From a virus: a stretch of 64,000 bases of DNA. The first letter of the stretch is position 1. Each line of letters starts with the position of its first letter. A model generated the notes under the pieces. The model searched no databases. It had not been told where the DNA came from and saw nothing but the letters and a program-made list of their open reading frames with translations. A program made the translations under genes and the position numbers. Of the stretch, positions 9,531 to 35,721 are shown piece after piece. The DNA lies in the IMG/VR virus record IMGVR_UViG_3300044712_000538, positions 11,940 to 75,939 of that record; one strand, given 5' to 3'.

Positions 9531-10166
9531 CTATTTCCGGGGCTGCATCATGCGCATAAATTCGGCGCCTGCCATTAGGATCAGGGCGGCGTTTGGGTCC
9601 TTGGCCGTGGTCTGGTGGCTGGCCTGCTCCATGGCTCGGGTGAACTGGTCAATGGTCCCGATGATCTTCTTGGCTATGGCCTGCCCTATTGGGGATAGCA
9701 TCCATTTATTCTTTGCTGGATGCAGGAAGTATTGCGGCCATTGGCGGCGAAGGCTATACATCCACCCGCCACCGTATTCTGGCCTCAGGTTAAATAGTGC
9801 GGACCATTGCCGGCCTGTTGCCGGTCGTCCTTCGTTGGCCTGCTGGGCATAATGCAGGGCCAATAACAGGCGCATGAATTGGGAGCGGTGGCCGATGGTC
9901 CTGCACATTACATCATGCCAAAGGAAAGCAGCGGATAGATAAGCGAGGTAATGGGATCGGTCCCGCTTGGTGTTTCTTCTCCCCCGCCTGAGCGGTTGGC
10001 CCGGCCATGGCGACCGGCCGAGGTATCCCGGCTGGCCCGGCTGGCGGGCTTGCCTTGGCCTCTTCTCTGGCTTCCTTGGTCCCTTGTCCTTTGCTCCCTT
10101 GGGTCTGCCCTTGGGCCTTTTCGGTGCCGGTTTCCCTCCGGTTTCTGCCATGTCATTATGTCCCAT
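9531..10166 (-). CDS. Basic putative DNA-binding protein (AT-hook-like N-terminus, possible winged helix)
   Basis: KRPKGRPKGAKDK; helix-rich core ending KWMLSPIGQAIAKKI, resembling a wHTH wing. Confidence 0.5.
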   Translation of the reverse strand: MGHNDMAETGGKPAPKRPKGRPKGAKDKGPRKPEKRPRQARQPGQPGYLGRSPWPGQPLRRGRRNTKRDRSHYLAYLSAAFLWHDVMCRTIGHRSQFMRLLLALHYAQQANEGRPATGRQWSALFNLRPEYGGGWMYSLRRQWPQYFLHPAKNKWMLSPIGQAIAKKIIGTIDQFTRAMEQASHQTTAKDPNAALILMAGAEFMRMMQPRK

Positions 10167-10216
10167 TTTTAGAGGATATTCAATAAAACGCCAATATTCT
10201 GAAATCAGCGTTATAA

Positions 10217-10235
10217 CTGATTGATTATCAATCAG
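10217..10235. repeat. Perfect inverted repeat adjacent to the dif-like site
   Basis: CTGATTGAT-T-ATCAATCAG. Confidence 0.85.
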
Positions 10236-10239
10236 GAAA

Positions 10240-10267
10240 TCTGCTAATAATTTCTATTATGTTAAAT
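10240..10267 (+). other. dif: XerC/XerD dif-like recombination site
   Basis: TCTGCTAATAA-TTTCTA-TTATGTTAAAT: 11-6-11 layout, XerD arm identical to canonical TTATGTTAAAT, XerC arm ends in ATAA. Confidence 0.85.
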
Positions 10268-10400
10268 AGGATGTAGTTCCCCGCTATGACTCCTGCCCGG
10301 CCGGTGGCCATGTCCTCCCTTCCATTTGTCTTCCCTTTTGCCCCTATATATGGCAGCGTGCAGGGTGCTGGTCGGCAAGTTTTTTGGCCATCGAAAATGG

Positions 10401-10556
10401 ACCCCACCCGGTTGCAGTTTTCGCGTTTCCCTTTCGCTGCGCGGCCCCCGGCTTTTTACGCGTTGGTGCGCCAGGTCAGCTACGGACTTCCGGGACCGTT
10501 TTTTTAATACTGGTTACAAATATGAATCTTTTCGTTGAAAAACAACCCCACCCGGT
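10401..10556 (+). repeat. 12-bp direct repeat ACCCCACCCGGT (x2) in the non-coding divergence region
   Basis: Copies at 10401-10412 and 10545-10556. Confidence 0.7.
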
Positions 10557-10778
10557 CTGATATTTTGGGTCCCCTTTTTGTGACAGTTTGTGTACGCGCC
10601 TGTTTTGGCTGGAATCCAATACCCGTAAGAGATACGGGTAGATCTTTGGTTCGGCTGCTGCAAGGGAAAATGTTACATATCCTTATTTGCCTATGGGCAA
10701 AAAAAACCCCCCTGGGGAGGGGGGAAATGATAGTGATCATTACTGAACACGACCGACTGCTTGAACAAAATTATTTTT

Positions 10779-11295: not shown

Positions 11296-11682
11296 ATGTC
11301 TGCAGATTCATCAGTACGCGACACTCGCGGGTTTTTCCCGGAAGAACAAATTGCTTATGTATGCCACTCCGCGAACAAGGCGTGGTGCGATCTCCATGGA
11401 GATTTTTCTCAAAAGCGTTGGGAGGATGCCGAGGAATGGCAGCGCCAGTCGGCTATTGCCGGGGTAAAATTCAGGCTGGAGAATCCCGGTGCCAGCCCGA
11501 AGATGCAGCATGAAGCCTGGCGGCAGGCGAAAGCGGCTGACGGATGGGTGTACGGGGAAGAGAAGGACGCGGAGAAAAAGACGCATCCCTGCATGGTCCC
11601 GTATGCTGAACTGCCCGAATTTCAGCGCCGGAAGGATGCGCTTTTCGCGGCTATCTGCAATGCTTTAACCGGCGAGATATGA
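11296..11682 (+). CDS. Stand-alone RyR (ryanodine receptor repeat) domain protein
   Basis: QHEAWRQAKAADGWVYGEEKDAEKKTHPCMVPYAELPEFQRRKD. Confidence 0.85.
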   Translation: MSADSSVRDTRGFFPEEQIAYVCHSANKAWCDLHGDFSQKRWEDAEEWQRQSAIAGVKFRLENPGASPKMQHEAWRQAKAADGWVYGEEKDAEKKTHPCMVPYAELPEFQRRKDALFAAICNALTGEI

Positions 11683-12634: not shown

Positions 12635-12667
12635 AATCCCAACAGGTCAAGTTGGTTTTGTGGTTTC

Positions 12668-12698
12668 GGGGTACGTTTGGTCGCGTACCCCTTTTTTT
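12668..12698 (+). terminator. Intrinsic terminator
   Basis: GGGGTACG-8nt-CGTACCCC-TTTTTTT. Confidence 0.8.
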
Positions 12699-12716
12699 AT
12701 TCCAAAATTTATTGCC

Positions 12717-13598
12717 ATGGTACATACACCAGTTGATTACTGCCTTGTGAAGATTGACAGGGCTTTCCAGGACGAGATTATTACCGAGGGTGGCGTTAAG
12801 TTCTTTCTCGATACGTCATACCACCCTGAACATCATGCCACCATTACCGGGGAGCTGGTATCGGTCCCGAAACGGCTTGGGCCGGATTACCGCCAGCAGG
12901 GCAATTTCGTGAACATGGAGGCTGGCGACAAAATCTGCTTTTCGTATCTGGTTGTGTTCGACCGGGGCTTTGATGATACCGCGAAGCATTTTTACAAGGT
13001 CGAGGAGATTGAGGGTGTGATGCAGCTATGGGTGAACAATTCTTTCGAGAAAATCCGGATCACCCGGTTTGATGATATGGTGGCCGGGGTTTATACGAAT
13101 GAGGCCGGGTTGCTGGTGGACGGCATCCAGCACAAAGGGCACCGTGCATGGGATGTGGTTCAGGCATGGCTTGGAAAATTCAGCCTGGAGGGAAGCGCCA
13201 TCATAAACTACAACAATGCCCTTGAAATTGACGGAGATGTGTACTGGCGCTGCGACTGGCGGTATGTGTTTTTTAAAGTGGATCGGCTTGTGAGTGAATC
13301 TGGCGAGCAGCTTCGGCAGGAGATCACCATGGCACCGGGATACTGTCTGGTGTTCCCGGAATCTCGGCAGACTGAATACCAAGGAAGGATCGAACTCCTG
13401 CAGCCGGTGCTTTCAAATTACACGGCTGAAAGTGCCGGCCGCGTCATCGCCAACGGACCGACATTGTGGGGCCGTAAAGAGTACGGATTGAAAAATGGCG
13501 ACAAGATCTTGTTCGATAAAAACTTCGCTGAAAAGTATGTCATAAATGGACAGGAAGTGCTTATTTTGAAGCATCGCTACATTATTGCGAAACTGTGA
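12717..13598 (+). CDS. Protein with GroES-like folds at both ends (crAss-like conserved gene)
   Basis: Start at ATG 12717; N-terminal EIITEGGVKFFLD..GELVSVP..GDKICFSY; C-terminal GRVIANG..LKNGDKILF..YVINGQEVLILKHRYIIA. Confidence 0.6.
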   Translation: MVHTPVDYCLVKIDRAFQDEIITEGGVKFFLDTSYHPEHHATITGELVSVPKRLGPDYRQQGNFVNMEAGDKICFSYLVVFDRGFDDTAKHFYKVEEIEGVMQLWVNNSFEKIRITRFDDMVAGVYTNEAGLLVDGIQHKGHRAWDVVQAWLGKFSLEGSAIINYNNALEIDGDVYWRCDWRYVFFKVDRLVSESGEQLRQEITMAPGYCLVFPESRQTEYQGRIELLQPVLSNYTAESAGRVIANGPTLWGRKEYGLKNGDKILFDKNFAEKYVINGQEVLILKHRYIIAKL

Positions 13599-21715: not shown

Positions 21716-24700
21716 ATGCCAGATTGGAGAGAACAATTACTTTCTGATATATCCAAGATAAAAGACCGGGACGCTGTATTGAAAAAATATCCTCAGTTGA
21801 AAGGGGATAAGAAAATGCTCCAGTCCCTTTACTCTTGGAATAACGCAAAAGCATCTGGCATCCCGCCTACGGATCTTGATGAAATGTATCCGGAGGTAAA
21901 GTCGTTTCTGATCCAGCCCGATGCTGCTCCGGCTCCGCAGCCTGGCGCTACCGTTCCTCCGCAAAAAACAGTTCCGGTAAAGCCGGTCCAGACTGTTCCG
22001 GCACCGGCAGCAAATACCCCGAAACCATTTCAGCAGCTTGAAGCCTCTATTCAAAAGCATGCTACTATCGCCAAGGCTATCCCGGAAAAGGGATGGGGCG
22101 AAGATCTTACCAAAAAGATACTCGGCGGTATCTACCCGAATGTGGGAAATACAAAATCTGCGCAGCATCGGGAAATGATGATTGCCGAGGCCGACAAGGC
22201 TCTTTCTGAAAAGAAGTCGCTGATCGAAAAAACGAAGCCGCTGATTGATGAGGTAGCGAAATGGTTCTCGCAGGATTACCAGACCGCAAAAAAGAAATAC
22301 ACGGTTGACGGTACTGACATGGGTGAGATCCGGGAAGACGTTGTGAGGGCCGAAGCCCGTAATTGGGCAAAGCGATACGGCGGCGGCTCCGGCGTTGAAG
22401 AGATCTTGTTTGCGTCGGCCCTTGGCGCAATTCAGGTTGAGCAAGTAAAGCCGAAATATGAGGCAGAACTCAAAAGCCTGTATAAGCAGAAGTACGGGAA
22501 AGACATGCCGACTGAAAAGGAAGCAGATCTTTTCCAGAATGCTATCGTATCTGCCGCGAAGGATCAGGTAAACAAGCAGATCGAAAAATCCAGCCAGGAA
22601 TTGAAGTTGAAGGTATCCCAAACATGGGATGAGCAATTCCGGAAGCAACTGGATGATTCGGCAAAGCGGTTTGGCTCCGATTCTCCTGAGTATAAAAACC
22701 AGTTTGCTCAGTCCGTTGCCGCAATAGGAAAGCTGGAGAAGCAATGGCGGCAAAAGGAGATCGCCAGAATCGAGCGGATCAAGTCCGAACTGGAAGCTGG
22801 TTTGAAGAAAAAGATTGAATCCTTCAATGCTGAGGAGCAAATGAGGATTGGTGCCATATCGGACGAGGCATACAAAAAAGCATCTCAGGCATATTCCGAA
22901 GCAAAAGGCGAGAAGAAATACCGCGAGGTTGCTGCCGCCAGCGACTTTTTTGGGAAGTCCCAACTGAACATTGGATTTAATAGGGCGCTTACCGGCCGGC
23001 TCCTTTATGGGGTGGCCAGCCTTGGCGATTACCTGGCGAGCGAAGGCTACCAATCGGCCGCGATTGACTGGATGCGTTCCATGGCTACTACCGGGGGAGA
23101 GCTGGACGTTCCGGACCTGAAACTCGGGTTCGATCGGAATCTGGCCATGGCCCTTGCCACAAGGACCGGTGGCGGTATTGGCTCGTCTGCCGTGCCCATG
23201 GGAGCCGCCATGCTGACTATGAATCCGCTGGCCGGAGCCCTTGTTTCCTATAAGATGGAAACGGCGATGATGGAGGCCGACATATGGAAAGAGCGTATGA
23301 TGGCTGGAGATCCTGAAGCAAAGCAAAAGGCCGATAAGGCTGGCGCGCAGACCGCGATACTCCTGCCCCTTTATGTGCTTGAAATGGACCGCCTTTTCGC
23401 GGGCATGAAGAAGGGTGGATGGGTGAACAAGGCGCTGAACATTTATGCCCCGGAACTGGCCCAGGAAGTCCCTACGGAATACTGGCAGCAGTATCTACAA
23501 GCAAAGTCCTCCGGGTTTAAGGGGGATTTTGCTGATTTTGTTGCCGAGGACAAGGGTAACATTGCCCTTGAAACCGCTATCGCCACCATCGGAATGTCCA
23601 CCGTATTTGCCTCCATGGGCAAAAGCACGGAAGCCGTTGGCCGGGCTCTTGGCCCCAAGGCAAAGGATCAGGCTATTATCTCGCTGGCGCAGCGGACGCA
23701 GATGGCCCCGGTGGATTTTGTTCCTACTCCATCCCCGTATAAAGGTCCGGACAATGACCCGGCCGCTCCGGCTGCCCCGGCCGGCACCGCCCAGGCGGTA
23801 GATCCTCAGGCCGCCACACCCTCAGTATCCCCGATTACCATGGTCAATGCCGCCTTGGAGCAGGCATGGATGAACGGGGAAATGAGTGATGAGCAGCTTG
23901 TCGATGAGAAAAAGCATGCTGAAATGATCCTTGCCAAGCAGGATGAACTCGCCAAGCTTGGTCTGGAGCCGGACATGATCCGGCACTATATCGGCCTGCA
24001 GGCTGAAATGGTCTATCTGCAAAACCAAATGGCTGCCGCCAAGGACCCGGTCCTGCAGGCGAAATTTGAAAAGGACATTGCCGCGATTCAGACGCAGATG
24101 GCCAAGGTGATCGACGACAAGATCGAGGAAACCATATTTTCTGTTACCACCCCCTTTGGAGATACCTATACCGCGACCGAGAAAGAATTGGATGAGATCA
24201 TGAACAACCCCCTGTTTGGGGCCCCGGAAGATCTTGTCATTACCCCGATCAAGGGTCGGCTTACCCCGGACGAACAAAAGGTTGCCGATGCCTTAGCCGG
24301 GGCGAAGCTTCCGGACGGCCTATCCGACATGAGCGTTGAGAAGCTGGTCCAGAAGTTTGCCGGGTCGAAGGATTTCAATGAGCAACGGGAAGCGATAAAA
24401 ATGTACCGGGATCAGCTTAATGATCCCCTGGGCCCAACTCCCCGGAAGCAAATGATCGCCGCTTTTGGGCAAGATCTTGCCGACCAGGTTGCCCCTCTTC
24501 CCTTTGGAGAGGTTGACAAAAAAGAGGTTGGTGAAAAACAGTTCAAAAACGTAACCGAAAGGCTAAAGTCCCGAGAGCCAGAAAGCTTTGAGGAAGAGGT
24601 TCTGCAAGGGTTCCTGCGTGATCTCCGTTTCTCTTCTGAGGACTTTACTCGGTATGCCGGGTTTGGCGGTAATTCCCGCTTGACGGGTGATAAAATTGGC

Positions 24701-27700
24701 GGCCGGGAAATGCGCCAGTACGCAATGAAGCGCCTCCGAAAAAAGTCGGAAGGCGGCATTCCCATTGACAAATACGTTCTCCAGCTTGCCGAAAAATGGG
24801 GCATTCCTCAGGGACAAGAAACGGACTATATCAATACGGTTATTGACCTGATATTGGAGCATCCGGGACAGGCCAGCGTTATTTCTCGGCTGGAAGCCCT
24901 GCAGAGCGGTGCCAAAACACAGGAAGAGTATGATGCCTGGCTAGAAAGAAAATATGGAAATGCGCAGGCCGCGAAGGATGCATTGGATGCCATGGATGAC
25001 GACCTTACCGAGGATGTAAATGATGTAATTGAAAAGATTGACCAGATTACAGACGAAGAGGCAGAAAGCATCGCGGATGGAGCGATGAACAACTTCATCG
25101 ACGAAAACGGGAACATCGATCTCTCCGCGATAAAGACATTCCTTGCCAGCGATGAGTTTAACGCAATGCCTGAAAAGGTAAAATCAATCATAAAGGAGGT
25201 TACAAATGGACTCGACCAAGCTGAAACAGACACTCAGGATGATGGCAATACAGATAGCAGCGAAGAAGAAGACCAAGACGAAGAAGAAACGCCGGAAGAG
25301 TTAAAAGACGCCTATCAGACCGAGAACTACAATGATCTGGTGAAGGCGTGGGAAAGCGGAAATAAGATATATGCGGTATCGGAACAAGATGAGGCCCCAA
25401 CCCCTGTTACCAGTTGGGAAATGCTCAATAACTATCCCCTTGATGCATTGTGGATTGTTGACCAGCAGGCCGAATCTCAATCCGAAAATGTTGTTGCTCC
25501 CAAGAAAGAAACCAAGGCTAAGGTCCGGCAGGAAACAAAAACTAAGCTGGCTGATGAAACAAAAAAGGCGCTGGATGACTTCCTTGATGCCTTTGATGAA
25601 CTTGGCAATCTTGGGTTTGCATATGATCCGGAAGAGCAAGCCAAAAAGCAATTCAAGCTTTATACTGCTGGCGCAAAGTTTGTTGCCGCCATGGCCAAGC
25701 AGGGCATATACCAGTTTAAGGATATGGTCCTTACCCTTGCAGAAAAGATGGGCGAAATACCCGGTGAACTTTTCCAGGCATTGAAAAAGGCATATGCTAT
25801 GGCCTATGCTGATGATGAAACGGGCCTGATGGAAGATCCGAAGACATTGCGGACGCTTACGCTGGAAGACATTCTTGCGGAAAAGGATGATAGCAATGAA
25901 TTATCTGGAATCGAAGCATTTAAAGAGGCTTTCCATAAGAATCTTTTTTCATTATGGGCTGATTTATCAATAAACCCTGATGCAAATCCCCGTCCATCAA
26001 ACATTATTGACCTTCGGAATATGGCCGTTGAAGCAAACTGGACTGGTGAAAACGGACTACCGGCTACGGACAATGAAATATTTGAGGCGGTTGAATCTGT
26101 TTTGATCAGATTTTCAAGGGAAATTGTTGCCATGTCTAAGGATAACCAAAAGGTTATGAAAAACCTGATGACGCTTTATAAAGTTCAGCCAACAATTTCA
26201 ATGCGAGATAGCGACAGGGTAATGCTCCAGCAATACTCTACGCCTATACCATATGCATACGCTGCTGGCGTGTGGATGAAAAACCAGAACAAGTATCTTG
26301 AACCAACGGCCGGAAATGGCCTCCTTACGGTCGCCTTGGACCCGTCTAAGGTCGATGTGAACGAAATCGACAAGACGCGCTTTGATATGCTGGCCGATCA
26401 GGGATTTTCATCAGTATCAAGCCGCGATGCCCTGGAGGGTTTTTCTGGAAAATATGATGGGATAATTGCCAATCCACCGTTTGGGTCAACGGATAAAATA
26501 ACCACCCAAGACGGGTATCCTATATCCGAACTCGCGCAAAGAATTGTTTATGAATCGTTAAAAACGCTGACTACAGACGGGAAGGCATCATTTGTCATAG
26601 GTGGACATACAGAATATGACGAAAAGGGGATCATGAAGGGGCGGGATCGCTTTTTCTTTAACTACCTTTATGACAACTTCAATGTTGTCGATGTTATAAA
26701 TGTAGCCGGAGATCTGTACGGCAAACAAGGAACCACATACCCTACCAGGCTGATTCTTATCGACGGAAGAAGGAATGTTGAAGGATCGCCAAGGAAAGAA
26801 ACTCGGCATGCTCCGATGAAGTCCGTTAAAGGATTTGAAACGGTCGGACTGCAGGCTCCAGACGATGCCGTTATATCCAGCTACCCCGAATTACTTAACC
26901 GTGTCTTAAAACCTAAAGACTATGGCCAACAAATTGATATTCCATCCGGAATGGACACCGACAAGGGATCTGGCAACAATATTCCTGGCAACCGGCCCGG
27001 AGGACGCAACCAAGGAGGATCTGGTGGAAGAAATACTTCCGGCACGGTATCGAAACCTGGCAAAGGAGTATCTCAGGGAGGGGCACGACCTCCAGTATCT
27101 GGAAACCTATTTGCCGGAAGCGACGTTCAGAAGCCATCTGAGTCCAAATCAGGTCGCGCAGGAAATAATGGTAACGCCGCAGTTTTTGAGGGCCAAGGAA
27201 ATGCTTTACCTCCAGGAGCCGGTCCCCGGCCTGCAGTTAGACCGGAAGTTGGCCGGACAAATTTACAGGGACGCAACGCTCCTGACGCTGGTGGAAGCTT
27301 TGCAGGAGTTAGAAATGTAAGCATCGAAAACCTGTCTTCCGAAAACGTAGAATACATCCCGTCTAGCAATATGCAGTTTGAGGTTGGTACGGTTATCCCG
27401 CCAAAGATGGCGGTTGAAGTGTATCGGCATCAGGACATGCTTATTGAAATGTATGGGAACCTTGCCGATTTTGTTCAATCTGAATTAGAGTACGAGCCGG
27501 ATGAATTTGCTGCTGCTTTTTCTTCCGAACAGGTTGATGCTCTTGCAATGGCCATACATAAGGCCAAGATGGGATCTGCAATGATTATCGGTGATCAGAC
27601 TGGTGTTGGTAAGGGCCGGATCGCTGCCGGCATGGTCCGGTGGGCAGTAATTAACGGGTATAAGCCGGTATTCATTACCGCAAAAGCAGATCTTTTTAGC

Positions 27701-30700
27701 GATTTCTGGCGAGATCTTAAAGATACCTTTAACGCACACCTTCGGTACTTTATCGTTAATAATCAAACTCCGGTTACGGAATATCACCTTGATGAGAGTG
27801 GTGATGAAGTTCCTGTTGATATATTCCGTTCACCAGAGAAGTCAAATCCAGACTACAAGAAGATTCTTTTTAATGAATCGGAAAATTCGCAAGATTCATT
27901 TGATTTTGTCATGGCTACCTATTCTCAGTTTTCTGGAAAGAAAATGGCCGACAAAATAGGGTTCATGAAAGGGATGCTCAAAAGAGGATTCTTCATAATG
28001 GATGAATCACATTGGGCATCTGGAGATTCAAATACTGGAGAATTATTCAGGGAAATGACTTCAAGCGCCGATGCCGGGTTGTTCCTTTCTGCAACATTCG
28101 CAAAGAGGCCTGATAATATGCCGGTATATGCTACCAAAACGGCAATGAAGGATACTGGGCTTGATGATGAGGCTCTTGCTGACGCGATATTGTATGGCGG
28201 TCCGGCGCTGCAGGAGGCAGTTGCGGCGCAGCTTTCTGAAAGCGGAGAAATGATCAGGAGGGAGCGCGACTTTAAGGGTGTTGAGATAGATTATATCCCT
28301 CTTGACAAAGAAGGAGAATCTTGGGGGGTAAAAGACCAGAGCGAATACCATTGGGATGTTTCCAGGAGAATGTCTGAAATGATGATGGACATTATCCATT
28401 TTCAGAGGCATCACATTCGTCCGTATCTTGATGGTATCCGCGAGGCGGTTAAGGAATCTAATCCAGAAATGAGTATAACCAATACTCCGTTTGCCTCAAA
28501 GGTTTTCAATATCAATAAGCAAATGCTTCTTGCCCTAAAAGCTGACGCATCGGTTGACTTGGCTATTAAGGAATTGAAAGAGGGGAAAAAGCCTGTAATA
28601 TCCCTTTCTTACACAATGGAATCATTCCTGTCTGAGGAACTTGCCGTTGGTGATGTTGTCCCGAGGTTTGATTTTTCAAGTATCCTTATAAAGGGGCTTG
28701 AAGGAACTCTAAAAACAAGGACCCAAAATGGTTGGGGGAAGGTAACCACATCGAAAATAGATATTGCGTCGCTCCCTGAGGAGTCCCAGGCCGCATACTG
28801 GTCGCTCGTTAAAAAGATTAAGGACAATACCATTGACTTGAACGCATCGCCTATTGACCATATAACGCATCGTCTTGAAAAGGCTGGATATTCTGTTGGC
28901 GAACTTACTGGCCGGCAGACAAGGCTTGTTCCGGTTGAAGATGGAGGATGGGCAATGACGAAATTCAAAAAGAGGAACAAGATAGATCTGGTTAAGAAAT
29001 TCAACTCAGGGAAGATTGATGTAATTATCATGAATCGTTCCGTGGCTCAGGGTATTTCAATGCATGCGTCATCGAAGTTTTCGGACCAGCGGCAGAGGGT
29101 GATGATTATCACAGAGCCAGAACTTGACGTAAATGATGAGATCCAAAAGCGCGGTCGTATTGATCGGGTTGGACAGGTTGTAAGGGGGGCGTATAGGTAT
29201 CTTGTTTCATCAATCCCCGCCGAGCAGCGATTGATGATGATGTTCAAAAAGAAAGTAGCCAGCCTTGATGCAAACGCAAAGACAACGCAAACAAACAAGG
29301 CCAATGAAGTGAAGGTTGTTGACTTTTTGAATAAATACGGTGATCAGATTGTTGTTGATTACTTATTTGAGAATGCTGCACTTAATGATGAAATACTTGA
29401 TCCGCTAAAAATATCAGATCAGATCTTTTCTGGCGAACGCGATTACAAGCCTCAGTCCGGAGATGCCCATAAGGTAACAGGAAAGGTTGCGCTGCTTTCT
29501 CCAGAAAAGCAAAAGCAGTTTTACGATGACATTTCAAATCGGTACACCGATTTGATGAATAGCAAGCTTGCTACTGGAGAGTGGGATCTTGAATCAGAGG
29601 TAATGAAGCTGAACGCAGAAAAGATCTCTTCAAATATCCTTATTGAGGGAAACAACAATAGTCCTTTCTCGCGCGACGTTATTCTTGATGAATATGAAAT
29701 TGACGTTCCGCGCGTTCCGATAAAAAAGGAAGAGTTAATCAAAATGGTTAATGACGAAAAAGCCGGAAATGATGTTGCTGATTATACCGCTGAAATAATA
29801 GACAGGGTTGAGGAGTTTTATGAAAAAAGGAAAGAGGCCATAAAAGAAGATATTACAAAAAATCTACTTGAAAAAAGGATACTGATTGTTAATACGATAA
29901 GGGCAAAAATGACTGAGAAGAACGCCCCGGCCGAAGAGATTGAGCGTGCGGTAAAAGAGGCCGAGGAGAGAAATGATTATGAAAGGGAGGAGAAGATAAG
30001 GGCTGAGTTTGCGAAAGCTAATAGCTACAAGGACAGGCTTACTAGGTTTGCTAGGTTTTTCTACCCTGGAAGATCTGTCCGGTTCCCGGTAGGAGAAGGG
30101 AAGAACATGGTTACGCACCCTGCCGTTTTTGTTAAGATCTCGTTTTCGGAAAAAGGAATATCCGAAAGCGATAGCATATACAGGCTTTCTCCGTCTGGAG
30201 TAAAGTTCCATTTTGCCGTCGATAGCGAGATTGTAAGAGATCAGCGTCCGGCTACATCAAACGATTGGTTGTATGAAGCCATGATGAACTCTCAAATGGA
30301 CTTTGAGAATAACCTTGATAATTGGGGCAAGTTTTCTGGAGGCTTAAGGAGGAAGGCGAGCATCGTTTCTGGAAACCTTTTGAAGGGGTACGGAACTGTT
30401 AAGGTAGGGCGCGTTGTGAACTTTACTACGAGCGAAAATGATATTGCGAAAGGAATATTAATGCCGTTTGGCGCTACTGCTGGAGAAGGGTTTAAGGGTA
30501 AAAGAATTGTTCCAATATCAAAGGCCATATCTATCCTTTTGGGACAGAGGGGTGCGGTATCTCTTGGCAAAGATGGTTTTTCTCTTTCCTTTTATGGGAA
30601 AATAATGAGCATAATCGTTCCTAAGTCAAGGAAAGAGGGCGGCGTTATATTCACCAATAAGGAAATACTCGACATAACCGGACCGTTTTATCAGAATGGA

Positions 30701-33700
30701 GGAAGCATGATTCAAGAGGTAAACGGTGAATCTTCTGCAAAAAAGGTTGGAGAGGTTCTTACAAAATTGGGTTTTACCGCCGTAATTGATGAAAAACACC
30801 TTCCCAAGTCAGATGGCAATATAAGCAAGCTTGTTTCGGCTCCGGCTGGCCAGCAAGTAATCCCATCAAGGGTCCCGGAAGAGTATATTTCAAGTACGCC
30901 CATTTCTCTTGAAGACATGGGTATTGGCCCGAATGATACTGCAGGGGAGATTGTTGACAAAATGATTTCCTATGGCGGTCCGTTTACCGAGATCTTGAAG
31001 TTCATACGGGCTCTTCCTGGATTTAAAGACATAAGCATCCAGCAAGTTGAATCGCTTGACGCAAACCATCCAGTTAGGAAAGTAATTGGTGCGCTCGCAA
31101 GCGATGCATCCGGCGTTTACTTCAATATGAAGGACCGTCCGGACACAATCGTAACAGAAATAGCGGGGAAGCCTATACAGGGTATTGTGGCTATTAATCA
31201 GGGTAAAACCAATAACGCATACTATACCCTTACGCACGAATTGCTTCACTTTTTGACCATCGATGGCATCGACTCAAAAGATCCTGAGGTCAAAAAGAAG
31301 CTTAAAAAGCTGGAGGACATTTACCTGTTTATGAGGTCTAAGCGGGATCGCTGGCTGATGGATGCCATGGAATCCTCTTCTCAGCTTCCTGGCGGGGACA
31401 AAATGCCTGGAAAGAATGTTGAACTGGCTGGCGCGCAAAAGGAACTGGATGGAGCCCTGAGGGAACTGGAATCGGCCAAAAAGGCTTTTGATGCAAAGAG
31501 GAAGGAACTGGATAAAGGAATCGTTGCTGACCAGACAGATCTTTTTGGAAACCGGAAGAGCGATACCGGCAACTCTCTTTTTGATGAAAGGGCATCTCAA
31601 TCAGGCCGCGATGCTGCCATGAAGCCTTTCCGCGACCGGCTGAACAAAGCTGAATCGGAAGCCAACCGTCTTCGGAAAAAAGTCGAAGGTCTTTTGGCTT
31701 CTGGCGGCGTGAGCCAGGGCGATCTTTTCTCGGCATTCGGATTTGGTCTGCAGGAATCGTATGGCTTTACCAATTTTAGGGAATTTATGGTCGAATTGCT
31801 TATGAACCCGATGTTCCGGGCAAACATAAGCAACATAGCGGCACGGTCCGAAATGGAATTTGCGAATGCAATATGGGCTGGCGCAGATCCGGACAAGAGG
31901 TCTATTTTGGCAATGATTAAGGACTATATCCGGTCCCTGTTCAAATCCATTTTTGGAAAATCATCTGTAAACCTTAACTCCCCGCTGGTTGATCAGGCGG
32001 TTACGCTGGCTGAGGATATTTTCTTCTCCGGGGAAAGCATTGTTGACCGGGTGTACGATACCGAGGCGGGGAACTACTTTACCATATACAGTAACTACAA
32101 TTCTGGACGATCCAGCCGTGGACCAGCATCGAAAACACTTTCTTTCTTCCCCGGATCTGGTGGCCAGGATACCGATTTCATCCTCAAAAACTATATCGCT
32201 CGGAAGGTTGTCGAGGGCATATTGTCGGATGCTACCATTTTGAATGTAGTTCAACGGCAGGGGATGGACCCGGTACAGGCAAAACAGATCATTGATCAGT
32301 ACCGGAAGAATCCTCCCGGCAAAAAGGCAATGGCGAAGCTTTCTACGTTGGCCAGGGCTGAAAAAGTTGGCCCGGTAGAAGATGGCGAAAAGGAAAGGAA
32401 GCTGAATCGAATGATACCGGTATTTGATCCAAAGGGTATAGAAAGGATCAATGAGCATGCAACAAGGTATTTGCCGAAGTCAATGAAGGTAAGCATGGAA
32501 GAGGCAGACAAGTTTATTGTCAATATCCCGACCCAAGATCTGAAGGACTTTGCAACCAATGTTCATAGCGTCCTGAACACCCTTCCGATTGACGTTCAGA
32601 CTGCAATACGGATCGCGGCAATCCTGCGCATGCAGAGCGAGGTTACTTTGCTCCGGGCTCAGGGCGATCACGCCCAGGCTGATCGGGTTTCAGAAGATAG
32701 TGCCGAGATCTGGAATCACATGACCCCGCTTTCAACCGAATTGGGCCGGGCCGTGAATCTTTACAAGCGTCTTATCTCCGACCCGGCATTCTCTAAAATG
32801 TCCATCCAAAACAAGTTCAGGGCGTTTGTGGCTATGGCCGAAAAGGCTATTGGCCGGAAGCTTACAGATGGGGAGAAGAAAAAGTTGTTTGAAATGTTCC
32901 AAGCATGGGACGCGGCCCCGGACGGAATTGGAAAGCAAATTGCCATGGCCAAGATTATGGCCTACATCAATACGCTCCGGCCGATTAATTTGTGGGATCT
33001 GCTCACAAACATATGGTACTCAAAAATCCTTTCGGGACCGGCGACGCACTTTACTAACCTGTTCAGCAATATCTTCAACGGTCCGATGGAAATGTTTGTC
33101 CAGTCGTTGGCCATTGGGAAGAAATACAAGTCCAATCCTGGGAAAATTGCCTTTGATCTGACCAAGGCTTGGTTCTCCGGGATAAGAAAAGGGTATGTTG
33201 AATCGAGGCACATTATGATTTATGGCCCGACGAAAGAGGAATCCACCAAGCTATACCAGAATCACCTTATGGAGGAACTGGACTGGACGAAGGCGAATAT
33301 TCCGTCATTCTGGAAAAAAGTCCTGAACTCGCCAGTCCTCCTATCCTTTAATCCTAAGATCTTGAAGTATGTCGGCCGGATGCTGGCTGCAGAGGACGCT
33401 ATGCTCCAGAATGCCGGTGAGCATTCTTTTGCTGAGGTTCTGGCGTATCTGGAGGCCGCGAAGTCAAACAAGGGTGCCGACAAGAAGCTTTTGAAGCAAA
33501 TGGCTCAGGCCATGGTGGCCAGCGATTCCATTTCATATGCCAAGGCGCAGCAGCAGGCATTAGACGAGGCCGTTGCCGCGCTGGATATGCTCCGGGATAT
33601 GAGGTCCGAGGCTGAAATAGCTGGTAACATGGCTGAGGTAAAAGCTATTTCCAGGGAGATTGCCATGTGGGATCGCCAGGTTAAGGGGAAGCATAAAAAC

Positions 33701-35050
33701 ATTGCATTCCGGAAGCGGGTGTATGAGATACTGGAGGCCAAGGCTACCGAAACAGAAGAGGGTGCCCGCATTATGCATGACGCGGCCGCAAGGGCTTCAA
33801 AGGTTACATACAATTTCCCTCCAAAAGGATTGTTTACCAGAACGATGTACGATGTTCTAATCTATGCCAGCGAGAAAGTCCTTCCGTTCAAGTTCTTTGT
33901 TCCGTTTGTCCGGATTGTTTCCAATCTGGTTGACAATATGATCAATTACTCGCCTGCAGGATTTGTAACGCCGCTTATCTCTTATGCCAAGCCAAGCGCA
34001 AATACCACAAAGGATGAAAAGGGAGCAAGGCCTTTAACCGATGAAGAGCGTACGGAGGTAATGATTAAGGCGATGATCGGAACTATTACATGGGTATTCC
34101 TTTACAATCTGGCCGTCCCGGACGGGGACGATGACGAGCCGTGGTTTTCTATTACCGGTGCTGGTCCATCCGACCAGGCGAAGGTATATGAGGCCCAAGA
34201 AACCGGCTGGAGGCCATACTCTATCCAGACAAGGGATGGAGAAACCATATCCTACAAGGCTACTCCGTTTTTCGCCCTTCTTGCTTCCATTGGTGCCATA
34301 TCCGATGAAATGAAGTTTGGCAAAAAGGATATATCCGAGAAGGATATATGGGACAAAATGGCTATCTCGGCATCTGGATTCGTAAAGTCTATTTTTGATA
34401 ACTCTTGGATGCAGGGGCTTGATGAGTTGCTTAATTCTGCCAAAGCAGAAAACCGGTTTGGTAAGTTGGATTTCAACGTGGTTGACAAGGTTACAAAAAA
34501 AGGTGTTGATGTGGCTGGCGCTTTTGTTATGTCTAACCTGTCGAAGCAGATCGTAAGGATGCACGACCGGATTACCGAAACGCCAATGAAGAAAGCAGAA
34601 ACGCCATATGAGCGAATTATAACCAACATGCCGATTGTTCGGAATGTTCTTCCGCATGAGATAACCAATGTTTGGGGAGATCCTGTTGTGAACGAAACAT
34701 ATCTCGGGTTCCTTCCCCTGAGGGCCCAGGTAACAGAAAAGGATGACGTAATCTCCCTGCTGGTTAAAAACGGCGTTTGGATTGGCCGACCCAGGAACAA
34801 TAAGGAGATTTATGACGGTGATGTACTTCGCCCGCTGACCAACGATGAATATTACAGGTATTACGTTCTGGCATCACAAAAGCTGAAGTCCATGCTGAAT
34901 GACCGGGAAACTATTGAGTACATAACCGAAATGGACCGCGAGGGAAATTCGGACGCGATAAAGACATTCATTCAATCTCGCAAGCAGAATGCCAACCAGG
35001 AAGCATTTATGGAACTGTTTGGCAATAGCGGAATAAATTCAGAGTGGTAA
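21716..35050 (+). CDS. Giant polyvalent virion protein: N6-adenine MTase + Strawberry-notch-type SF2 helicase + zincin + internal-virion-protein-like C-terminus (DarB-like)
   Basis: QQYSTP/YLEPTAGNG/NPPFG (aa ~1586); GDQTGVGKGR (~1959), MDESH (~2096), LSAT, GISMHA, QKRGRIDRVGQ; THELLH (~3174); C-terminal PFVRI..N..GAGP..GWRPYSI. Confidence 0.85.
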   Translation: MPDWREQLLSDISKIKDRDAVLKKYPQLKGDKKMLQSLYSWNNAKASGIPPTDLDEMYPEVKSFLIQPDAAPAPQPGATVPPQKTVPVKPVQTVPAPAANTPKPFQQLEASIQKHATIAKAIPEKGWGEDLTKKILGGIYPNVGNTKSAQHREMMIAEADKALSEKKSLIEKTKPLIDEVAKWFSQDYQTAKKKYTVDGTDMGEIREDVVRAEARNWAKRYGGGSGVEEILFASALGAIQVEQVKPKYEAELKSLYKQKYGKDMPTEKEADLFQNAIVSAAKDQVNKQIEKSSQELKLKVSQTWDEQFRKQLDDSAKRFGSDSPEYKNQFAQSVAAIGKLEKQWRQKEIARIERIKSELEAGLKKKIESFNAEEQMRIGAISDEAYKKASQAYSEAKGEKKYREVAAASDFFGKSQLNIGFNRALTGRLLYGVASLGDYLASEGYQSAAIDWMRSMATTGGELDVPDLKLGFDRNLAMALATRTGGGIGSSAVPMGAAMLTMNPLAGALVSYKMETAMMEADIWKERMMAGDPEAKQKADKAGAQTAILLPLYVLEMDRLFAGMKKGGWVNKALNIYAPELAQEVPTEYWQQYLQAKSSGFKGDFADFVAEDKGNIALETAIATIGMSTVFASMGKSTEAVGRALGPKAKDQAIISLAQRTQMAPVDFVPTPSPYKGPDNDPAAPAAPAGTAQAVDPQAATPSVSPITMVNAALEQAWMNGEMSDEQLVDEKKHAEMILAKQDELAKLGLEPDMIRHYIGLQAEMVYLQNQMAAAKDPVLQAKFEKDIAAIQTQMAKVIDDKIEETIFSVTTPFGDTYTATEKELDEIMNNPLFGAPEDLVITPIKGRLTPDEQKVADALAGAKLPDGLSDMSVEKLVQKFAGSKDFNEQREAIKMYRDQLNDPLGPTPRKQMIAAFGQDLADQVAPLPFGEVDKKEVGEKQFKNVTERLKSREPESFEEEVLQGFLRDLRFSSEDFTRYAGFGGNSRLTGDKIGGREMRQYAMKRLRKKSEGGIPIDKYVLQLAEKWGIPQGQETDYINTVIDLILEHPGQASVISRLEALQSGAKTQEEYDAWLERKYGNAQAAKDALDAMDDDLTEDVNDVIEKIDQITDEEAESIADGAMNNFIDENGNIDLSAIKTFLASDEFNAMPEKVKSIIKEVTNGLDQAETDTQDDGNTDSSEEEDQDEEETPEELKDAYQTENYNDLVKAWESGNKIYAVSEQDEAPTPVTSWEMLNNYPLDALWIVDQQAESQSENVVAPKKETKAKVRQETKTKLADETKKALDDFLDAFDELGNLGFAYDPEEQAKKQFKLYTAGAKFVAAMAKQGIYQFKDMVLTLAEKMGEIPGELFQALKKAYAMAYADDETGLMEDPKTLRTLTLEDILAEKDDSNELSGIEAFKEAFHKNLFSLWADLSINPDANPRPSNIIDLRNMAVEANWTGENGLPATDNEIFEAVESVLIRFSREIVAMSKDNQKVMKNLMTLYKVQPTISMRDSDRVMLQQYSTPIPYAYAAGVWMKNQNKYLEPTAGNGLLTVALDPSKVDVNEIDKTRFDMLADQGFSSVSSRDALEGFSGKYDGIIANPPFGSTDKITTQDGYPISELAQRIVYESLKTLTTDGKASFVIGGHTEYDEKGIMKGRDRFFFNYLYDNFNVVDVINVAGDLYGKQGTTYPTRLILIDGRRNVEGSPRKETRHAPMKSVKGFETVGLQAPDDAVISSYPELLNRVLKPKDYGQQIDIPSGMDTDKGSGNNIPGNRPGGRNQGGSGGRNTSGTVSKPGKGVSQGGARPPVSGNLFAGSDVQKPSESKSGRAGNNGNAAVFEGQGNALPPGAGPRPAVRPEVGRTNLQGRNAPDAGGSFAGVRNVSIENLSSENVEYIPSSNMQFEVGTVIPPKMAVEVYRHQDMLIEMYGNLADFVQSELEYEPDEFAAAFSSEQVDALAMAIHKAKMGSAMIIGDQTGVGKGRIAAGMVRWAVINGYKPVFITAKADLFSDFWRDLKDTFNAHLRYFIVNNQTPVTEYHLDESGDEVPVDIFRSPEKSNPDYKKILFNESENSQDSFDFVMATYSQFSGKKMADKIGFMKGMLKRGFFIMDESHWASGDSNTGELFREMTSSADAGLFLSATFAKRPDNMPVYATKTAMKDTGLDDEALADAILYGGPALQEAVAAQLSESGEMIRRERDFKGVEIDYIPLDKEGESWGVKDQSEYHWDVSRRMSEMMMDIIHFQRHHIRPYLDGIREAVKESNPEMSITNTPFASKVFNINKQMLLALKADASVDLAIKELKEGKKPVISLSYTMESFLSEELAVGDVVPRFDFSSILIKGLEGTLKTRTQNGWGKVTTSKIDIASLPEESQAAYWSLVKKIKDNTIDLNASPIDHITHRLEKAGYSVGELTGRQTRLVPVEDGGWAMTKFKKRNKIDLVKKFNSGKIDVIIMNRSVAQGISMHASSKFSDQRQRVMIITEPELDVNDEIQKRGRIDRVGQVVRGAYRYLVSSIPAEQRLMMMFKKKVASLDANAKTTQTNKANEVKVVDFLNKYGDQIVVDYLFENAALNDEILDPLKISDQIFSGERDYKPQSGDAHKVTGKVALLSPEKQKQFYDDISNRYTDLMNSKLATGEWDLESEVMKLNAEKISSNILIEGNNNSPFSRDVILDEYEIDVPRVPIKKEELIKMVNDEKAGNDVADYTAEIIDRVEEFYEKRKEAIKEDITKNLLEKRILIVNTIRAKMTEKNAPAEEIERAVKEAEERNDYEREEKIRAEFAKANSYKDRLTRFARFFYPGRSVRFPVGEGKNMVTHPAVFVKISFSEKGISESDSIYRLSPSGVKFHFAVDSEIVRDQRPATSNDWLYEAMMNSQMDFENNLDNWGKFSGGLRRKASIVSGNLLKGYGTVKVGRVVNFTTSENDIAKGILMPFGATAGEGFKGKRIVPISKAISILLGQRGAVSLGKDGFSLSFYGKIMSIIVPKSRKEGGVIFTNKEILDITGPFYQNGGSMIQEVNGESSAKKVGEVLTKLGFTAVIDEKHLPKSDGNISKLVSAPAGQQVIPSRVPEEYISSTPISLEDMGIGPNDTAGEIVDKMISYGGPFTEILKFIRALPGFKDISIQQVESLDANHPVRKVIGALASDASGVYFNMKDRPDTIVTEIAGKPIQGIVAINQGKTNNAYYTLTHELLHFLTIDGIDSKDPEVKKKLKKLEDIYLFMRSKRDRWLMDAMESSSQLPGGDKMPGKNVELAGAQKELDGALRELESAKKAFDAKRKELDKGIVADQTDLFGNRKSDTGNSLFDERASQSGRDAAMKPFRDRLNKAESEANRLRKKVEGLLASGGVSQGDLFSAFGFGLQESYGFTNFREFMVELLMNPMFRANISNIAARSEMEFANAIWAGADPDKRSILAMIKDYIRSLFKSIFGKSSVNLNSPLVDQAVTLAEDIFFSGESIVDRVYDTEAGNYFTIYSNYNSGRSSRGPASKTLSFFPGSGGQDTDFILKNYIARKVVEGILSDATILNVVQRQGMDPVQAKQIIDQYRKNPPGKKAMAKLSTLARAEKVGPVEDGEKERKLNRMIPVFDPKGIERINEHATRYLPKSMKVSMEEADKFIVNIPTQDLKDFATNVHSVLNTLPIDVQTAIRIAAILRMQSEVTLLRAQGDHAQADRVSEDSAEIWNHMTPLSTELGRAVNLYKRLISDPAFSKMSIQNKFRAFVAMAEKAIGRKLTDGEKKKLFEMFQAWDAAPDGIGKQIAMAKIMAYINTLRPINLWDLLTNIWYSKILSGPATHFTNLFSNIFNGPMEMFVQSLAIGKKYKSNPGKIAFDLTKAWFSGIRKGYVESRHIMIYGPTKEESTKLYQNHLMEELDWTKANIPSFWKKVLNSPVLLSFNPKILKYVGRMLAAEDAMLQNAGEHSFAEVLAYLEAAKSNKGADKKLLKQMAQAMVASDSISYAKAQQQALDEAVAALDMLRDMRSEAEIAGNMAEVKAISREIAMWDRQVKGKHKNIAFRKRVYEILEAKATETEEGARIMHDAAARASKVTYNFPPKGLFTRTMYDVLIYASEKVLPFKFFVPFVRIVSNLVDNMINYSPAGFVTPLISYAKPSANTTKDEKGARPLTDEERTEVMIKAMIGTITWVFLYNLAVPDGDDDEPWFSITGAGPSDQAKVYEAQETGWRPYSIQTRDGETISYKATPFFALLASIGAISDEMKFGKKDISEKDIWDKMAISASGFVKSIFDNSWMQGLDELLNSAKAENRFGKLDFNVVDKVTKKGVDVAGAFVMSNLSKQIVRMHDRITETPMKKAETPYERIITNMPIVRNVLPHEITNVWGDPVVNETYLGFLPLRAQVTEKDDVISLLVKNGVWIGRPRNNKEIYDGDVLRPLTNDEYYRYYVLASQKLKSMLNDRETIEYITEMDREGNSDAIKTFIQSRKQNANQEAFMELFGNSGINSEW

Positions 35051-35721
35051 TGACAGGACACACACAACTATGCAGTATCGATCCATTTGCTCCAGACTTT
35101 GAAAAAAAGGAGTCGGTAAATGGATTGTGTTCGATGGCAATGTCCATCTGGTCTGGATGGGTTATTGATGTATCCGGGGAGGATGATGCCGATCCTGGGC
35201 CCAATTCGGAGATAATTACCAAGTATGGACACATGCCGGAAACGGTTTTTGACCTATTGAGGTGGGTTATACTGGTCTATGATCCGAGGTCCCCGCTGGT
35301 AAAGGACTATCCGGATCTTCCGACCAGAAAGTTCAGGGCCCTTGTAGCTATTGGTATTGACGAAAAGGAATCTGATTGGGACTGGCTGATCTTGAATCGG
35401 GACAAAGGGGTTACAACAATGATTACCGCATACATGCGGAATTATTGCAAAAGCCGATTGTGGGCAATGATTGTTGCCAATAACGAGGCTTTTTGGGAGT
35501 TCTTTTCTACGATGATCGAAAGGAATCAGGAAGGGGCCGATGACATGAATGGCGTAAACGCCAAGATTAAAACGTCCGACGGGATGGTTTCGCTTCTGGA
35601 GAAGATTGATAAGCAGATGAATGACTTTTATGGCGAGGATAAGGAAACCATAGCGGAAGGGGACGAAATGTTTATGAGCGTAGAAAAAATGGCCGATGTA
35701 CTATCCAATAGAAAACGGTAG
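35050..35721 (+). CDS. Hypothetical protein, candidate terminase small subunit
   Basis: TAATG-coupled start; YDPRSPL motif; directly upstream of the large terminase. Confidence 0.5.
   Translation: MTGHTQLCSIDPFAPDFEKKESVNGLCSMAMSIWSGWVIDVSGEDDADPGPNSEIITKYGHMPETVFDLLRWVILVYDPRSPLVKDYPDLPTRKFRALVAIGIDEKESDWDWLILNRDKGVTTMITAYMRNYCKSRLWAMIVANNEAFWEFFSTMIERNQEGADDMNGVNAKIKTSDGMVSLLEKIDKQMNDFYGEDKETIAEGDEMFMSVEKMADVLSNRKR

Follow-up and report, generated by a model that had tools for sequence, protein, structure and literature searches.

A phage genome from rhizosphere metagenomes carries, in the gap between its divergently transcribed genes, a 28-bp site with the architecture of a bacterial dif. 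The core of this site is identical to the dif of the bacterial family of its likely host, the site has been selectively conserved in the phage lineage, and the phage itself has no recombinase. Based on these observations we favour, tentatively and giving it slightly less than an even chance, the view that the recombinases XerC and XerD of the host would keep the phage circle monomeric via this phage-borne dif-type site; monomer maintenance seems a more likely use of host Xer than integration. The analysis covers a window of 64 kb, which corresponds to bases 11940-75939 of a 75,939 bp IMG/VR virus record; coordinates given below are those of the window, and statements about the genome concern the entire record.

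The ends of the record overlap by 127 nt, and the assembly is therefore circular. PHROGs recognised the genes for the large terminase subunit (TerL, 35696-37786) and the portal (37788-40187), and DnaB, Dam, RadC and RyR were among the matches obtained when about 40 proteins were scanned with Pfam and PHROG. No PHROG match was obtained for the candidate capsid protein, and no repressor, partition or plasmid-replication function was recognised among these ~40 proteins, many of the ORFs being without a family. Upstream of the terminase genes lies an ORF of 4444 aa (21716-35050, plus strand), separated from TerL by an ORF of 225 aa; the ORFs at the corresponding position in relatives are 2266-2584 aa long. 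The original prediction that the 64 kb lack an integrase was borne out and extends to the whole 75,939-bp record: searches in any frame with PF00589, PF00239 and PF00665 gave no match at E<=1, so that the phage is without a detectable domain of a tyrosine recombinase, a serine recombinase or a DDE transposase. The label "crAss-like", which the phage had also been given, is not supported, because by TerL its nearest cultured phages are the Flavobacterium Elemovirus and the Cellulophaga and Tenacibaculum podophages (28% identity; Elemovirus and the Cellulophaga podophages being the nearest classified ones), and Elemovirus is not assigned to Crassvirales in the taxonomy of its record. No convincing dif-like site was found when the Elemovirus genome was scanned.

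Relatives whose TerL is 38-47% identical are plentiful in metagenomes, and the closest one, P0005 (TerL 87% identical), is encoded on a 74-kb contig. Prophage relatives reside in Terrimonas rubra (G001), in the chromosome of a Flavisolibacter MAG (G002) and in Polluticaenibacter (G003), and a Niabella terrae protein is also among the TerL relatives. All these named hosts are Chitinophagaceae, which makes this family the likely host family of our phage, as judged from its relatives. In a TerL tree our phage, G002, the IMG/VR record G018 and other integrated relatives form one clade, in which the TerL proteins of G002 and G018 are 41-44% identical to that of our phage. The features of the region that contains the site are compiled in Table 1.

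Table 1. Features in and around the gap between the divergent genes (window coordinates).
Feature	Position	Strand	Basis and remarks
First leftward (early) gene, 211 aa	9531..10166	-	Translation; basic N-terminus with KGRPKG repeats (AT-hook-like)
Sigma-70-like promoter match before first leftward gene	10155..10183	-	Consensus scan, 9/12; Bacteroidota promoters differ from that consensus
Perfect 9-1-9 palindrome, CTGATTGAT-T-ATCAATCAG	10217..10235	.	Core ATTGA-N3-TCAAT; 4 nt left of XerC arm
dif-like XerC/XerD core site	10240..10267	+	Read directly; unique in genome; conserved in G002 and G018
XerC arm	10240..10250
Central region, TTTCTA	10251..10256
XerD arm	10257..10267
Conserved non-coding block on XerD side, GACCCCACCCGGTT...GTTTCCCTTTCG	10400..10436	+	Three-phage alignment
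Second GGGTGGGG copy, within ACCGGGTGGGG	10546..10553	-	Aimed at XerD arm
Terminator-like G+C hairpin followed by T-run	10707..10724	-	Consensus scan
RyR-domain protein, first rightward gene, right edge of gap	11296..11682	+	Pfam RyR, E 9e-12

The plus-strand sequence of the site, TCTGCTAATAA-TTTCTA-TTATGTTAAAT, is as had been claimed, an 11-6-11 arrangement of 28 bp in which the inner arms are palindromic (ATAA / TTAT). The XerD arm occurs once in the 75.9-kb record, and a search of the window for the core ATAA-N6-TTATGTTAAAT (15 specified bases), with up to two mismatches allowed, returned a single match, which has no mismatch at all. Shuffled sequence gave 0.17 core matches at this tolerance, and an exact match was estimated at roughly 2e-4. 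It should be noted that very many windows had been scanned beforehand, and that a reversed control pattern yields 85 matches in IMG/VR, both of which would suit a chance match in an AT-rich promoter region. Against this, the same control gives 33 matches in ~650 Mb of Chitinophagaceae DNA, that is, at most about 0.004 exact matches expected per phage genome, and two distant relatives share the site in both location and orientation, together with a co-conserved neighbouring block (see below). We therefore regard coincidence as very improbable. The exact arms (22 specified bases) had no match in the viral contig or genome contig sets, and neither the 1165-aa neighbour protein nor the left flank plus XerC arm had a match in metagenome contigs. 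A 199-nt contig from run X2, a similar rhizosphere sample, is ~81% identical to positions 10239-10275 alone, and may represent a bacterial dif of the community.

For Bacteroidetes, Kono et al. (PMC3025954, supplement) predicted a dif of the form ...ATAA-TTTA[TC]A-TTATGT[TA]AAAT. Of 151 Chitinophagaceae genomes sampled, 127 contained the pattern ATAA-N6-TTATGTTAA[AG]T, in nearly all cases as a single copy; the total of 137 matches to the family pattern compares with 33 to the reversed control. The central regions of these family sites conform to TT[TA]A[TC]A, with TTTATA being the commonest, besides TTAATA and TTTACA. The comparison with predicted Bacteroidota dif sites, which had been put forward as a check, thus shows that the XerD arm and the inner XerC arm of the phage are identical to the core of a site that is single-copy in most of these genomes, and that the central TTTCTA differs by 1 nt from TTTATA. 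Two chromosomes allowed the family site to be placed. The octamer GGGTAGGG, which conforms to the KOPS consensus of E. coli (GGGNAGGG), is found in G085 27 times on the plus and twice on the minus strand over the 860 kb before the site, and then 19 consecutive times on the minus strand; in G087 the counts are 21 plus and 4 minus before the site, and 8 minus and 2 plus after it. As the octamer flips strand exactly at the single-copy site in both chromosomes, this site is the terminus dif of the family, and GGGTAGGG behaves like a KOPS of the Chitinophagaceae. The octamer is dense near the predicted dif in both (G085:C1 ~2,277,193; G087:C1 ~2,275,935). Neither GC skew nor de novo skewed k-mers gave a signal in the 400 kb around the dif of the G002 host. 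The host of a relative encodes XerC- and XerD-like genes.

Two other arrangements of dif-like sites were seen in bacterial sequences. Within ~1 kb of G106:C2 (1788300-1789346) there are three such sites, two with the central region TTCACG and a canonical TTTATA dif in opposite orientation, which could be a small array of Xer-dependent elements at the terminus. An uncultured Bacteroidetes MAG has two identical sites, ATAATCAATTTTATGTCAACT, inverted and 6.6 kb apart (G004:C3:1007813, minus strand, and 1014448, plus strand).

The site is conserved in two relatives of the phage. It reads TTGTCAAATAA-TCAATC-TTATGTTAAGT in the Flavisolibacter prophage G002 and TGTCCATATAA-TTACGA-TTATGTTAAGT in G018, with at most one core mismatch, and in both it lies 2.4-2.75 kb upstream of the homologue of the structural gene located at 12660-13598 in our phage, in the same orientation. 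Alignment of the three phages shows that the inner XerC arm and the entire XerD arm are fixed and that the central 6 nt are variable, and that the flanks cannot be aligned except for a block of ~40 nt on the XerD side (GACCCACCC..TT..GTTTCCGTTTCCCTTTC), which in our phage is separated from the site by a 100-nt insertion. In our phage the block contains GGGTGGGG on the bottom strand at 10402-10409, pointing to the XerD arm; G002 has two copies of CCACCCGGTT. No consensus fold on either strand and no Rfam family that would indicate an RNA role was found for the block. Neither 22 other relatives nor the flanks of host dif sites contain the block, and in IMG/VR its sole real match is G018, the nine others being coincidences in coding sequence. 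This pattern is what would be expected of purifying selection on an Xer site plus an accessory element. Thus, the original prediction of a genuine dif-type XerC/XerD core is supported, both by the match to the Chitinophagaceae dif and by selection within the phage lineage. The expectation of a positionally conserved dif in related phages held for G002 and G018, and failed for most other relatives: 3 of the ~7 TerL clade members that could be tested have the module and none of ~40 wider relatives does, and no family-wide enrichment was seen (3 matches versus 7 for the control in 43 related IMG/VR records). The starts of relatives' contigs near the gap were also considered as possible genome termini; as they lack homology to one another and fall in coding sequence that is repeated, they were rejected as such.

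The large non-coding gap at the point where transcription diverges, another element of the original prediction, was found as described. It measures 1.13 kb, from the start of the minus-strand genes at 10166 to the first convincing plus-strand gene, encoding the RyR domain, at 11296, and contains only mechanical ORFs of non-coding appearance. The first leftward gene has the site 74 nt upstream of its start; its 211-aa product has no Pfam or PHROG match and no homologue among 5.8 billion proteins. The minus-strand hairpin inside the gap suggests that a small leftward transcript may be present there, and the palindrome next to the XerC arm looks like an operator of the leftward early promoter. 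The palindrome core ATTGA-N3-TCAAT is also present 19 nt to the left of the G018 site (G018 44281), and an identical 13-mer of the palindrome (10220-10232) is found inside the Terrimonas prophage (G001:C3:2543672), a recurrence that suggests a regulator common to the clade.

In view of this setting, one may ask whether the site serves Xer recombination at all in this phage. It might be a relic, or part of an early promoter/operator hub or a replication origin, or it might titrate or recruit XerCD without recombination. Its location in the divergent gap, 57 nt upstream of the promoter-like match and 4 nt from the operator-like palindrome, would agree with such a role, as would the repeated motif in the adjacent conserved block, which resembles iterons, and the fact that most relatives manage without the site. 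However, a fixed inner XerC arm and XerD arm flanking a free central 6 nt is the signature of an Xer site and not that of a promoter or origin; moreover, the XerD arm is identical to that of the host family, and the free positions follow dif preferences. We therefore consider a role of this kind unlikely.

Sites of this type are not limited to the clade of our phage. The core is present in at least 120 IMG/VR contigs, which form at least 60 flank-distinct clusters. Among 111 unique viral sites, position 5 of the XerC arm is C in 73% (24% in controls) and position 6 of the central region is A in 93% (29% in controls); our phage has the preferred C at XerC-arm position 5 and a T...A central region. 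The sites are intergenic in contigs of tailed phages, some lying beside RusA and others between the genes for the terminase subunits, and their enrichment at contig ends is weak. In one group among loci L151-L270 the site separates a small-terminase-like gene from that of the large terminase, and in another it is located ~160 nt upstream of a small-protein/terminase operon. In five contigs a gene for the Holliday-junction resolvase RusA ends 25-80 nt from the XerD arm (L158:4-31, L241:14233-14262, L174, L184 and L208), and two of these five are relatives of our phage family; the RusA stop codon of L158 is inside the arm, and the sites of L158 and L241 are within 10 nt of a contig end. RusA is absent from the genome of our phage. 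Inverted pairs of dif-like sites, 109-125 nt apart, were noted in L184 (2873/2982), L208 (4863/4972) and G181:C62 (2985/3110). Such pairs could be hairpin attP sites in the style of CTXphi, and those of L184 and L208, with the same RusA gene on both sides, could be fold-back assembly artefacts.

A possible connection of the site with phage-encoded enzymes comes from G002, where a small Xer-like recombinase adjoins a helicase gene; another integrase is possibly present at the other end of this prophage. The recombinase (264 aa, SAM-like plus catalytic domain; L029:17304-18098) shares 43% identity with a recombinase of 263 aa from the unrelated phage G449 (L400), which also has a dif-like site, and the two enzymes resemble one another more closely than they do the XerC/XerD candidates of the host. 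The site might accordingly be the target of a small phage-borne recombinase of this type, whose gene our phage has lost, leaving an orphan site or one that is served in trans. This is improbable in view of several observations: G018 has the module and, as its only enzyme of this kind, an arm-type integrase; 12 of the 14 site-bearing IMG/VR records that are at least 90% complete have no PF00589 tyrosine recombinase; the sites and the recombinase genes are 11-22 kb apart; and the agreement of the arms with the host dif speaks for host XerCD.

The original prediction offered two uses of host Xer, namely integration at the host dif without an own integrase and persistence as an episome whose dimers are resolved. 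The first would make the site an attP through which host XerC and XerD integrate the phage at the chromosomal dif, as in IMEX-type lysogeny, possibly transiently if FtsK-XerCD excise it again. A genome without a recombinase of any class fits such a life style, and there is a precedent in the integrase-less microviruses that are integrated at dif-like sites in Bacteroidetes (PMC3091885). In addition, TTTCTA shares 5 of its 6 positions, including the XerC-proximal TTT, with TTTATA of the family, and in G001 the syntenic locus is occupied by an integrase, i.e. by the integration module of that prophage. The relatives that bear the module speak against it. G002 has its own tyrosine recombinase and G018 an arm-type integrase, 28 kb from its site, and both keep the module nevertheless. 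The G002 prophage (2.84-2.89 Mb) is 0.5 Mb away from the dif of its host (3.379 Mb), and its dif-like site lies within the prophage, flanked on either side by phage genes. The integrated relatives use integrases of their own and are located elsewhere than at dif. These facts argue that integration is not the shared role of the module. Furthermore, the central TCAATC of G002 mismatches the TTTATA of its host dif at 3 of 6 positions, which would disfavour recombination with the chromosome, and not that between phage copies. No att repeats were found at the ends of this prophage.

Surveys of other sequences point in the same direction. No pair of dif-like sites at prophage spacing was seen on one contig in the 151 Chitinophagaceae genomes, and TerL relatives are present in 2 of 401 genomes of the family, neither of which could be placed next to dif. 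Contigs that switch to host DNA at the site had been named as a check; no phage-host joint was found in the contigs (Logan) of the sequencing runs covered, and the source contig spans the site. Close relatives were detected at low coverage in two other runs, where their contigs do not extend over the site. The sole "provirus" with a canonical dif at its edge, G456, was examined as a case of Xer integration and proved to be a Mu-like transposable phage. Although absence from such a sample is no proof, we consider integration at the host dif, based on these data, an unlikely function of the site.

The second use, as an episome with dimer resolution, fits better with a complete two-armed dif that is kept with or without an integrase. 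A function that is common to phages with and without integrases, and that tolerates any central sequence, fits recombination between the phage's own sites. Multimer resolution, or cyclisation, by host XerCD is the form of such recombination between site copies that we favour. The 28-bp site would be a working-type XerC/XerD site copied from the Chitinophagaceae dif, whose two arms would be bound by XerC and XerD of the host, the phage itself encoding no recombinase. Whether two copies of the site arise by dimer or multimer formation or simply share one molecule, recombination between them would then restore monomers. The conserved XerD-side block may assist in this as an accessory element, possibly one that guides FtsK. 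Such a process might be linked to a plasmid-like carrier state.

A possible involvement of FtsK was tested on the G-rich motifs near the viral sites. In IMG/VR, CCCNCCC is present on the top strand of the XerD side at 26 sites and in the opposite orientation at 6, with 10 in either orientation on the XerC side; it peaks 25-50 nt from the arm, and its bottom-strand consensus is GGGTAGGGGAGGGG. The canonical GGGNAGGG, within 100 nt and aimed at the XerD arm, is found in 7 of 60 flank clusters, and the other three classes of orientation and side have 0-1. In the genome of our phage (~75.8 kb), GGGTGGGG occurs twice only, 135 and 279 nt from the XerD arm, on the same strand and both times aimed at the arm. 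A broader proposal would be that large tailed Bacteroidota phages keep a host-type dif so that the septal XerCD-FtsK system handles their circle like a small chromosome; we hold this more loosely than monomer maintenance as such, yet regard it as a more plausible idea than integration.

Several considerations weigh against monomer maintenance. A plasmid-like state is not supported by the gene content of the phage, and it is not obvious why phages packaging from concatemers would need to resolve dimers. In chromosomes of the host family, clear polarity is missing for the G-rich motif of the phage (GGGTGGGG / CCGGGTGGG): in G085, GGGTGGGG is polar before dif, and after it for ~90 kb only, and CCGGGTGGG is not polar. 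Most clade members and relatives lack the module, and the copies of canonical GGGNAGGG in the phage genome, 7 directed toward the site and 5 away from it, give no sign of convergence.

The site of our phage shares features with different known Xer systems. The chromosomal system of dif, XerC/XerD and FtsK-KOPS, as known from E. coli and for dif1 and dif2 of V. cholerae, has the same 11-6-11 architecture. In the case of the Chitinophagaceae, the dif core is even identical, and the G-rich octamers on the XerD side of the phage site also point at the site. The phage site differs in being located on a 76-kb phage genome, in that the phage motif is GGGTGGGG and not the GGGTAGGG that is polar in chromosomes of the host family, and in lacking genome-wide KOPS convergence. 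The cer site of ColE1 and the psi site of pSC101 resemble the phage site in that a circular extrachromosomal replicon relies on host recombinases at a monomer-restoring site. The accessory sequences of cer and psi, of ~160-180 bp, are located on the XerC side, and these systems are FtsK-independent. In contrast, the conserved block of the phage is on the XerD side, and no plasmid-maintenance genes were recognised in the phage. Among phages, the analogue is the Cre/loxP system of P1, which brings its own recombinase, whereas our phage relies on that of the host. The IMEX elements (CTXphi, VGJphi, TLCphi) are likewise integrase-less viruses with a dif-like site. IMEX-type cases include proviruses of Bacteroidetes microviruses (PMC3091885), gokushoviruses (PMC7062461) and Vibrio DJR phages (PMC12715192). 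However, the described IMEX viruses that we found are small ssDNA or tailless phages and ours has a dsDNA genome of tailed-phage size; in addition, no integrated copy of it was found, and integrases of their own are present in the relatives with the module. In the literature searched, exploitation of host Xer is described for plasmids, filamentous phages, microviruses and DJR phages, and a host-type dif in a tailed dsDNA phage was not among the cases encountered.

In summary, such sites are no oddity of a single phage, as they are present in at least 60 flank-distinct IMG/VR lineages, frequently in complete genomes that have no tyrosine recombinase. Should the site of our phage be functional, the way in which Bacteroidota phages without an integrase persist in growing host populations could be approached by molecular tests. 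If host XerC and XerD do keep the phage circle monomeric, this would allow persistence without a phage recombinase and the segregation of monomers in dividing cells, and could underlie the carrier state in phage groups that lack integrases.
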